Shown here: piece by piece, positions 14,411 through 15,300 of the stretch
Position numbering within the stretch: the stretch's first letter is position 1
Layout of the letters: each line of letters begins with the position of its first letter
Origin: Escherichia coli
GTDB taxonomy: Bacteria > Pseudomonadota > Gammaproteobacteria > Enterobacterales > Enterobacteriaceae
DNA length: 64,000 nucleotides
NCBI RefSeq assembly: GCF_003334815.1
Contig: NZ_QOWO01000016.1
Direction: 5' to 3' (one strand)
Program-made: the position numbers and the translations under genes
The notes under the pieces: model-generated
Database searches by the model: none
Told to the model about the DNA's origin: nothing
Seen by the model: only the letters and a program-made list of their open reading frames with translations

Positions 14411-14770
14411 ATGTTAACGCCGTTTGGTAAGACAGTAAGAAAAATGCGCATAGACTTGGGGCTTACGCTTAAAAGCATGGCTGAGGCTATGGGCATGACC
14501 TCGTCTTATCTTTCAGCGATCGAAACTGGTAAAAGGGCGGTCACTAAGCCCGTGCTTGATAGCATCATTAGCTATTTTAATGCGGATGAAAAACAAAAAG
14601 AAAAGCTTATCAGTGCAGCTCGTGACTCTCAGCAGTCAGTAGAGATCAGCTTGTCAGGTAAGAATGGCCACGCTCGTGAAGTCGCAATTGCGTTCGCTCG
14701 TAGTTTTGATGAATTAAATGAAGAAGACTTCCGTAATTTACGACAGATTTTGAATCGAAAACAGCAGTAG
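14411..14770 (+). CDS. XRE-family helix-turn-helix transcriptional regulator
   Basis: 119-aa ORF; HTH segment LTLKSMAEAMGMTSSYLSAIETGKR; GGAGAAG upstream of ATG. Confidence 0.8.
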   Translation: MLTPFGKTVRKMRIDLGLTLKSMAEAMGMTSSYLSAIETGKRAVTKPVLDSIISYFNADEKQKEKLISAARDSQQSVEISLSGKNGHAREVAIAFARSFDELNEEDFRNLRQILNRKQQ

Positions 14771-14778
14771 GAGGCGGC

Positions 14779-15300
14779 TTGAGCGGACAAGATTATCGTG
14801 TACCTCCGCAGAATCGTGAATCAATACGTTCTATCGTCACATCTCTGCGGAGCGCATTTGGTATTACTGGGCTTAAATTCCCTGTAATGGAGGTAATTGA
14901 GTTCGCATTGCCTCAGTTGATCCCGGATTTTGAGTTCCACATTGGTGGCATGAAAGAAATGGGAGAAACGCATGGTCTTACGTACCCACAGGAACATTTA
15001 TTGATTCTGCGCGAAGACATTTACGAAGGCGCTTTGAATGGGGTAGGGCGAGATAGGATGACTGCCGCGCATGAATTGGGTCATCTTCTTATGCACAGGA
15101 ACATCGCATTTGCTCGTTCTGCCCCAGGGGTAAAAATCCGCCCTTTTGAGAGTAGTGAATGGCAAGCTAAATGTTTTAGTGGTGAGTTATTAGTGCCGGC
15201 TATGCATGTCAGTATTTTAAAAGGTATGACGGCTGAGGATGTTGCTAAGGCATGCGGAGTTTCATTAGTGGCAGCGCGTTATCAGCTAGACAGAATGTAA
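14779..15300 (+). CDS. ImmA/IrrE-family zinc metallopeptidase (DUF955-like)
   Basis: 173-aa ORF with HEXXH motif (AAHELGHLLMH); TTG start 4 nt after AGGAGG, 8 nt after the HTH stop. Confidence 0.8.
   Translation: MSGQDYRVPPQNRESIRSIVTSLRSAFGITGLKFPVMEVIEFALPQLIPDFEFHIGGMKEMGETHGLTYPQEHLLILREDIYEGALNGVGRDRMTAAHELGHLLMHRNIAFARSAPGVKIRPFESSEWQAKCFSGELLVPAMHVSILKGMTAEDVAKACGVSLVAARYQLDRM

Follow-up and report, generated by a model that had tools for sequence, protein, structure and literature searches.

A pair of adjacent genes at positions 14411-15300 of a 64,000-nucleotide stretch of Escherichia coli DNA (contig NZ_QOWO01000016.1, hereafter the window) encodes an XRE-family helix-turn-helix (HTH) repressor and a zinc metallopeptidase of the M78 (ImmA/IrrE) type. 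Taken alone such a pair is ordinary, and routine annotation describes it as 'helix-turn-helix' and 'ImmA/IrrE family metallo-endopeptidase'. What surrounds it is unusual: the pair is accompanied by a conserved, unannotated, pseudoknotted riboregulator and by a highly conserved orphan mini-protein of 49 amino acids (aa), both shared with RelE/XRE modules. Judged from its sequence, the region 14241-15642 appears to be a self-contained 1.4-kb mobile transcription unit, a prophage 'moron'; the initial annotation, which covered 14411-15300, had missed the RNA leader and the small open reading frame (ORF). According to the integrated model, which has about an even chance of being correct, the unit is an autonomous, autoregulated repressor/protease switch with a dedicated output, probably the 49-aa protein.

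The leader and the 49-aa ORF appear to be the only constant partners of the pair. Both follow it in all 28 loci fetched through the peptidase, with the ORF about 157 nucleotides (nt) downstream. The reverse search, in which the small protein was the query against viral contigs, returned 54 loci, 52 of them with enough upstream DNA, and the peptidase gene was located about 150 nt upstream of the small ORF in 49 of these 52. In Vibrio, Aeromonas and Pseudoalteromonas (the genus labels of loci, here and below, are the source names of protein clusters) the small protein retains 69-78% identity, compared with 50-54% for the peptidase. All ORFs of the module show purifying selection, with non-synonymous variation (pN) of 0.03-0.19 against synonymous variation (pS) of 0.32-0.82. 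For the small ORF, which is unannotated in many records, the values in its own frame are 0.06-0.09 and 0.57-0.74, respectively, and both other frames show the opposite relation. The comparison supports the coding status of the small ORF.

The small protein matches PHROG 33859, a family with unknown function (1.5e-26), and has no match in Pfam, NCBIfam or PADLOC. At 50% identity, 1.84 billion proteins yield 110 clusters of its family, and the members, 41-100 aa in length, are essentially all stand-alone. AlphaFold2 confidently predicts a small beta-sheet containing aromatic and basic residues, with a predicted local distance difference test (pLDDT) score of 91. Four homologs of the small protein in UniProt and the AlphaFold database (G7ESJ1, U7GVV4, W0Q1G0 and A0A1G5UV65) are labelled 'Transposase'; no basis was found for this label, which is probably a propagated misannotation. 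The intrinsic terminator of the module starts 12 nt past the stop codon of the small ORF.

The region between the peptidase gene and the small ORF is assigned a structure of four helices and a pseudoknot (Table 1), which was tested for covariation in an 18-sequence alignment (A5) against controls in which the 3' partner was slid by 1-3 columns and against 500 column shuffles. In the named structure 81% of the cells were paired, compared with 34-47% in the slid controls; 21 pairs showed compensatory changes, compared with 8-14, and the covariation score was 0.306, compared with at most 0.139. None of the 500 shuffles reached the leader values for the percentage paired, the two compensatory-change counts or the covariation score, and the count of extra pair types was reached in 60 of them. 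The pseudoknot is represented across lineages by at least ten distinct compensatory variants at the same position. The minimum free energy of the window leader corresponds to a z-score of -3.1 relative to shuffles. A search of 15301-15457 against Rfam 15 gave no match at E<=1, and none of seven homologous leaders had a match at gathering score. The leader is a structured RNA on the evidence of covariation and lacks an Rfam counterpart. The H1 stem also covaries, and its loop (15312-15326) retains the motif GGCG(C/G)CAAC.

RNAalifold proposed an alternative in which AUCUCU is paired with the Shine-Dalgarno (SD) sequence, which would exclude the pseudoknot pairing. Since both sides of this helix are invariant, it lies outside covariation testing; an anti-SD/SD helix is a possible alternative conformation. 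The 49-aa ORF is preceded by an out-of-frame ATG (15454-15456), which is situated at optimal SD spacing and lies 4 nt ahead of the true start codon. Across genera an ATG is retained at this distance from the SD sequence, although it is offset from the true start by +4 in some cases and +2 in others, and it may act as a decoy start or translational brake. The 34-aa ORF that begins at this ATG was considered as a gene in its own right and rejected despite having the best SD spacing, as its frame is broken in homologs and pN exceeds pS.

The initial annotation had described a 119-aa HTH protein followed, after an 8-nt gap, by an SD-coupled 173-aa protein with an HELGH motif, and had compared them with the repressor/protease pairs of the ImmA, IrrE and CapP types. 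Both ORFs are confirmed as placed, and Pfam and PADLOC matches agree with the assignment to an XRE repressor and an M78 peptidase. The sequence GGAGG at 14770-14774 precedes the peptidase gene, overlapping the stop codon of the HTH gene and extending into the gap (14771-14778), and translation of the peptidase is predicted to be coupled to that of the HTH protein. The latter matches the Pfam families HTH_31 (1.5e-10) and HTH_3 (4e-10) and, over its whole length (residues 2-116), the PADLOC model capH (3.6e-10). The peptidase matches Peptidase_M78 (PF06114; 8.5e-9, residues 72-170) and the PADLOC model capP (4.9e-11), as well as RmrA models down to 1.9e-8. Residues H98, E99, H102 and E127, the first three of which belong to the HELGH motif (residues 98-102), are invariant in a 63-member alignment of the family and align to H96, E97, H100 and E129 of CapP. 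The zinc site, for which a check by alignment had been suggested, is therefore complete, and the protein possesses the features that define M78/COG2856, namely, HExxH, a downstream Glu as the third zinc ligand and the M78 fold. Among solved structures the family profile is closest to CapP (7t5t, 2.3e-14), followed by IrrE (3dte, 2e-4; 8slm, 3.5e-3). All of the 120 listed peptidase homologs are at most about 200 aa long. A literature search found the protein accessions in no paper.

Upstream of the HTH gene lies a putative sigma-70 promoter, the -35 hexamer of which is contained in the right arm of an operator-like palindrome, so that the two overlap. A scan of 29 distinct upstream regions of homologs located a palindrome with the consensus AAATCAACA-N6-TGTTGATTT in most of them, about 92-121 nt before the HTH start and across several genera, and its spacing relative to the promoter is kept in homologous loci. 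In the window the palindrome has one exact match and one unrelated 1-mismatch site at 46736; it is absent before the small ORF, before dinI and, upstream of the neighbouring gene cassette, from 12457-12815. Of the two intervals in which the initial annotation had proposed a search for operators, 14280-14410 thus contains the palindrome and 12560-12815 does not. The promoter was read directly from the sequence, and because a consensus promoter scan did not list it, it is given here as putative. It carries no LexA box; of the promoters of the module and of dinI, only the latter has LexA boxes, and LexA control of the module was rejected on this ground. A 22-bp palindrome at 14367-14388 was likewise rejected as an operator: homologs keep a hairpin at this position but not its sequence (GGCAAGC/GCTTGCT, AGAGTC/GACTCT and AAGCTG/CAGCTT), which points to a stem-loop at the 5' end of the transcript.

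In its AlphaFold2 model (pLDDT 86), the HTH protein folds into an HTH domain of five helices (residues 4-74), followed by a linker (75-85) and two helices at the C-terminus (86-101 and 104-118). In the alignment of its homologs (A6) R97 shows no variation, and conservation of F95 and A96 is at least 90%; these three residues are located in the first C-terminal helix. The dimerisation domain of CapH consists of two helices, the first of which is cut between F82 and R83, and truncation at this point derepresses the target of CapH (bioRxiv 10.1101/2022.04.27.489752). The positional match between F95-A96-R97 and the CapH cut site is suggestive and gives a predicted cleavage position. Searches of solved structures with the HTH protein matched only the HTH domain, including that of DdrO, and a fold search with the model was discarded as a discriminator, since it returned generic XRE matches (ClgR, C-proteins, DdrO and HigA).

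On these grounds the switch may be pictured as follows. The repressor would dimerise via its two C-terminal helices, bind the palindrome over its own -35 hexamer and keep the expression of the whole operon low. Upon a signal, the peptidase would cut the repressor in the first C-terminal helix near F95-A96-R97, a position equivalent to CapH F82|R83 and DdrO L106|R107, and such a cut would abolish dimerisation and DNA binding; repression by the HTH protein and its cleavage by the peptidase are both inferred by homology with these systems. Transcription would then rise and, as the anatomy of the unit suggests, pass through H1 into the leader. Here translation of the small ORF would be gated a second time: the stretch 5' of the ribosome-binding site may pair with either the H2 loop, forming the covariation-supported pseudoknot, or the SD sequence, and the conserved out-of-frame ATG would compete with the true start. 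The 49-aa output would most likely be a nucleic-acid-binding effector that is harmful if freely made, such as a toxin, an abortive-infection factor or an exclusion factor, a role suggested by the tight multilayer control and by the partners of the small protein.

Several observations weigh against this reading. The small ORF occurs without the peptidase in three of the 52 testable viral loci. Helix H1 resembles a leaky terminator, has a strong U-tract in some homologs and looks like a strong terminator in others such as L064, and co-transcription of the small ORF is for this reason an assumption of the model; a crude scan found no separate small-ORF promoter. CapP and IrrE consist of three domains (peptidase, HTH-like linker and GAF) and bind single-stranded DNA (ssDNA) in the groove that separates peptidase and GAF, whereas the peptidase of the module ends at about CapP residue 183 and has neither a GAF domain nor an interdomain ssDNA groove; its profile aligns with CapP residues 81-183 of 291 only, and in the PADLOC capP profile positions 56-147 of 242 are matched. 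It also lacks the cysteine-switch loop of some CapPs, with no Cys between H102 and E127, although this loop is present in about a third of CapPs and is optional in the family. Because both the GAF domain and the cysteine switch are missing, the activating signal is not transferable from CapP or IrrE. The missing ssDNA groove and the lack of a LexA box at the module promoter weaken the suggestion of the initial annotation that the switch might respond to DNA damage.

The CapH/CapP system of the E. coli MS115-1 cyclic-oligonucleotide-based anti-phage signalling system (Lau et al. 2022; Calloji et al. 2026) is similar to the module in having an XRE repressor with a two-helix C-terminal domain, modelled here for the HTH protein, and an M78 HExxH...E peptidase; it provides the best PADLOC matches and the closest solved structure, and the aromatic-x-Arg motif is located in the same helix where CapH is cut. 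However, the capH and capP genes sit divergently upstream of the operon they control, while the pair in the window heads its own operon rather than diverging from a target immune operon. As both the CapP architecture and the CapP gene placement fail, the peptidase is considered a member of the M78/ImmA-IrrE family but not a CapP.

In the length of the peptidase and in its gene order the module resembles ImmR/ImmA of Bacillus mobile elements (ICEBs1 and phi105), where a single-domain peptidase gene is located just downstream of, and co-directional with, an autoregulated XRE gene; the 8-nt spacing and the SD sequence over the stop codon correspond to this arrangement. ImmA is about 170 aa long. 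The likeness lies at the level of Pfam M78. ImmR/ImmA lacks the RNA leader and small ORF found here, and the host of the module is Gram-negative. Furthermore, ImmR is the master repressor of excision and transfer of its element, whereas the prophages that carry the module have a LexA-type CI and no such genes follow the pair. In DdrO/IrrE (PprI) of Deinococcus a metalloprotease cuts the C-terminal dimerisation region of an XRE repressor, as is predicted for the module, and profile matches were obtained to IrrE and to the HTH domain of DdrO. Unlike the module peptidase, IrrE has HTH-like and GAF domains, binds ssDNA, is encoded on the chromosome by a gene unlinked to that of its substrate, and governs a repair regulon.

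The leader and the small ORF are also found behind other genes. In a viral contig (L069, 5033-6150) they follow a RelE/Gp49-like toxin and an XRE antitoxin, with the pseudoknot covariation intact, and in E. coli IGC_RcoliRes_1.1 (L088, 4094-5212) a RelE/ParE toxin and an XRE HTH protein; the latter unit resides in a P2-like prophage between the portal and replication endonuclease genes, and its small ORF is unannotated there. In locus L075 they come after an AbiLi-type ATPase (PADLOC, 1e-70). Given these RelE/ParE+XRE and AbiLi partners, the two look like a component that XRE-controlled or defence operons have in common at their downstream end. Put most simply, they would be a downstream output shared by XRE-controlled mobile operons, of which the window contains the protease-operated version. 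A three-way association of Xre, COG2856 and RelE or PIN proteins, and three-component systems in which the protease cleaves the Xre repressor controlling a further component, were predicted by Makarova in 2009 (PMC2701414), and an output role of the small ORF fits this prediction. The experimentally found defence system PD-lambda-2 consists of HigB, an Xre-peptidase fusion and a third gene (PMC9519451). Like these predicted systems, PD-lambda-2 and RosmerTA (an RmrA Xre-peptidase fusion with a toxin), the module combines XRE and an M78 peptidase with a further small or variable component. Unlike the PD-lambda-2 and RosmerTA fusions, its HTH protein and peptidase are separate, and its third component has a structured leader; no RelE, PIN or RmrT partner was found in the window, and no PD-lambda-2 model matched.

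These partners also bear on two other readings of the small ORF. The small protein could serve the minimal peptidase in trans as a cofactor or sensor, for instance by binding single-stranded nucleic acid in place of the HTH-linker/GAF groove, given that the peptidase ends where the CapP sensor domains start, that linkage of the two genes is near-obligate and that a basic, aromatic-rich beta-sheet is a surface typical of ssDNA or RNA binders, from which a functional link might be drawn. This is rather unlikely, since the leader and small ORF also follow peptidase-less RelE+XRE pairs and the AbiLi ATPase, and an SD-occluding RNA control with a decoy start would be needless for a cofactor. Alternatively, the pair could be a two-gene toxin-antitoxin system, in which the peptidase would be the toxin, the HTH protein the antitoxin and the downstream ORF an unrelated hitch-hiker. 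Xre-COG2856 pairs were proposed to be mobile modules of toxin-antitoxin type (PMC2701414), the HTH protein weakly matches antitoxin models, and the module has a patchy, mobile distribution, being present in 13 of 5426 complete E. coli genomes. However, COG2856 proteins alone were non-toxic in Streptococcus pneumoniae and E. coli (PMC4257102), the characterised relatives ImmA, IrrE and CapP are repressor-cleaving regulators, and the small ORF is placed within the unit by its invariable linkage and greater conservation, all of which makes a two-gene toxin-antitoxin system unlikely.

The initial annotation had suggested that the pair might gate the adjacent low-GC cassette, which encodes an LPO_1073/Vpar_1526 protein, or had been carried in by recombination; it is the second suggestion that the distribution of the genes supports. 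None of the 5426 complete E. coli genomes searched contains the pair and the cassette together. The cassette is found with a single dinI and without the pair in H3-H6, the dinI being intact in locus L002, while in loci L085 and L086 the pair lies at prfC directly behind lambdoid gpJ/tail-fibre genes without the cassette, and in locus L001 it lies at the prfC junction behind an IS1-disrupted cassette of reverse transcriptase and SLATT genes. The order at the prfC junction is always dinI fragment, pair, dinI, prfC. A CapH/CapP-like DNA-damage switch acting on the cassette would be in keeping with capH and capP being the best-named PADLOC matches, with the low-GC cassette being an accessory insert in a variable hotspot and with the SOS control of the neighbouring dinI genes (LexA boxes at 16110-16153). 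It is nevertheless highly improbable: apart from the independent occurrence of the two, the cassette lies upstream on the same strand and ends in a hairpin, a dinI fragment on the opposite strand intervenes, the palindrome is limited in this region to the pair's own promoter, and the placement of capH/capP and the GAF domain of CapP are not reproduced. The pair almost certainly does not gate the cassette.

Independent movement of the module is further indicated by an 89%-identical copy (L003) between yejO and the integrase of another prophage, the homology of which to the window spans 14241-15642 with the same boundaries, ending in the terminator. In E. coli the module was found in at least three contexts, and homologous pairs are located at a prophage-satellite junction (Klebsiella type), beside a lambdoid integrase (Yersinia type), within the nin-like region of lambdoid prophages (Aeromonas type), alongside cI in a prophage of Vibrio cholerae, in Pseudoalteromonas between the integrase gene and cI, and alone between the core genes yicC and a nucleoside-transporter gene in Serratia. 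No early, lytic or excision/transfer genes adjoin the pair in any context examined, and the host prophages carry their own S24 (LexA-type) repressors. Together with a promoter, as predicted from the sequence, and a terminator of its own, the variable presence between conserved phage or host genes corresponds to the definition of a moron. Among isolated phage genomes the module was found in only one unannotated record (KM389287.1).

The module often lies beside P4-like satellites or between two integrase genes (L009, L011-L013, L028 and L004-L008), and locus L010 retains only a remnant of a P4-type integrase. An explanation of these junction sites by tRNA genes and attachment (att) sites was rejected, as a search of the window up to 22000 and of nine loci gave no tRNA genes; none lie near the module in L004, L009, L010, L013 and L028. 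Location at integrative-element junctions, including those of P4-like satellites and lambdoid integrases, is what would be expected if the peptidase were a trans-acting anti-repressor that targets the XRE/CI-type repressors of co-resident prophages and satellites and couples their induction. Cross-cleaving ImmA-like proteases exist in Gram-positive bacteria. Such a role appears quite improbable here: the CI proteins of the host prophages are self-cleaving LexA-type S24 repressors rather than CapH-like substrates, the module also occurs without a mobile element nearby, and the cognate HTH protein co-varies with the peptidase. Barely plausible is the view of the module as a functionless remnant of a decayed ImmR/ImmA-type phage immunity region. 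Its rarity in E. coli and its position in a recombination scar, between the dinI fragment and dinI, are compatible with decay, yet all three of its ORFs remain intact and show strong purifying selection in different genera, its boundaries are identical in unrelated contexts, and early or lytic genes never accompany it.

The window is chromosomal DNA of E. coli, with the gene order phage tail genes, invertible tail-fibre segment, Pin/Gin-type invertase, cassette, dinI fragment, pair, dinI, prfC and osmY. The closest relative prophage in a complete genome (L087) encodes a tyrosine integrase, a LexA-family CI (ymfK), Cro (ymfT) and an antiterminator (Q), as well as an HK97-type head and a Mu-type baseplate, under e14 gene names. 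The prophage is e14-like and site-specifically integrated beside prfC; it is not Mu, as the initial annotation had labelled it. The view that the pair is accessory and not the main switch of the prophage is borne out, although it follows from the LexA-type CI of the prophage itself and its e14-like nature and not from a position relative to Mu. Of the two dinI copies between which the pair had been placed, the downstream one is intact and the upstream one amounts to no more than a 3' fragment with a frameshift. Where the module is missing, genomes carry one dinI copy at the same junction, and the fragment and full gene around the module are a recombination scar.

The invertible tail-fibre segment extends over 10752-12456, with two minus-strand tail-fibre/assembly ORFs (10752-11875) adjoining the invertase gene. 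The 313-aa cassette protein matches the NCBIfam model LPO_1073/Vpar_1526 (3.4e-24) and PHROG 19542 (function unknown), and PADLOC gave no match for the cassette. The cassette fills a variable slot between the invertase and dinI, which is likely to be a defence or moron hotspot; in strain 510016 an IS1-disrupted reverse transcriptase and SLATT pair replaces it directly upstream of the dinI fragment. In L087 a Dsr1 sirtuin defence gene adjoins the integrase (30189-34016), representing a second cargo slot in this phage type. The LexA box at 16110-16125 was also listed by the terminator scan as a terminator-like hairpin.

Table 1. Features of the module, its leader and the flanking region (positions in the window)
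Feature	Position	Strand	Description
Operator-like palindrome	14315-14338	strandless	AAATTAACA-GAATTT-TGTTGATTT (= AAATTAACAGAATTTTGTTGATTT)
Putative sigma-70 promoter	14332-14360	+	-35 TTGATT 14332-14337; 17-nt spacer; extended -10 TGtTAACTT 14352-14360
Hairpin	14367-14388	+	AGACCTGAAGT/ACTGAAGGTCT; predicted transcript 5' end
XRE-family HTH repressor gene	14411-14770	+	ATG start; 119 aa
M78 (ImmA/IrrE-type) zinc metallopeptidase gene	14779-15300	+	TTG start; 173 aa; single-domain, minimal
Structured leader of small ORF	15301-15457	+	157 nt between peptidase gene and small ORF
Leader H1	15304-15311 with 15327-15334	+	conserved loop GGCGCCAAC
Leader H2	15340-15346 with 15358-15364	+
Leader H3	15389-15394 with 15404-15409	+
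Leader H4	15366-15373 with 15416-15423	+
Leader pseudoknot	15350-15356 with 15433-15439	+	H2 loop CCAAGAG with CTCTTGG; directly 5' of SD
Pseudoknot variant			H2 loop CTGAGAGG; partner 5' of SD TCTCTCAG
Pseudoknot variant			H2 loop CCAAAAGG; partner 5' of SD TCTTTTGG
Pseudoknot variant			H2 loop TCGAGAG; partner 5' of SD CTCTCGG
Pseudoknot variant			H2 loop CCGGGAGGA; partner 5' of SD TCCTCCCGG
Pseudoknot variant			H2 loop ACCTAAGGG; partner 5' of SD TCCTTAGGT
Pseudoknot variant			H2 loop CCCAAGGG; partner 5' of SD TCCTTGGG
Pseudoknot variant			H2 loop AACAGCGG; partner 5' of SD CCGCTGTT
Pseudoknot variant			H2 loop AGAAGGGG; partner 5' of SD TTCCTTCT
Pseudoknot variant			H2 loop CTGGGAG; partner 5' of SD CTCCCAG
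SD sequence	15441-15449	+	AAGGAGGTG
49-aa basic protein	15458-15607	+	MGLKSIASKAAPKGFRWVFCRYRKVRGKSKKVLDAHDYGYEAWAFLVRC; predicted small beta-sheet fold, aromatic/basic-rich
Intrinsic terminator	15620-15646 (also given as 15620-15639)	+	AAGGCACC-TGCG-GGTGCCTT + TTTTTGT; terminator scan; ends module
Pin/Gin-type serine invertase	11866-12456		PHROG 125, 1e-97
Low-GC (~31%) cassette	12815-14007		84-aa hydrophobic, membrane-like protein and overlapping 313-aa LPO_1073/Vpar_1526 protein
dinI 3' fragment	~14070-14215	-	frameshifted
dinI	15846-16094	-	intact
Two perfect LexA boxes	16110-16125, 16138-16153		CTGT-N8-ACAG; dinI promoter region, between dinI and prfC

Pairs of XRE and M78-peptidase genes are very common on mobile elements, and their targets are usually unknown outside ImmR/ImmA, DdrO/IrrE and CapH/CapP. 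Annotation pipelines never pick up the RNA and frequently overlook the small ORF, so that such pairs get read as orphan regulators of their neighbours. The presence of a constant, riboregulated 49-aa partner makes the question of what is switched on experimentally simple. That RelE/XRE toxin-antitoxin operons have the same output unit links two large families of mobile stress and defence modules. More tentatively, the module may represent a new three-tier switch, in which a repressor, a protease and a pseudoknotted riboregulator control the release of a new 49-aa nucleic-acid-binding effector; the leader and small protein would then be the long-sought third component shared by the Xre/COG2856 and RelE/Xre mobile modules of proteobacterial prophages, and the leader a new class of cis-regulatory RNA, possibly responsive to a ligand or protein.

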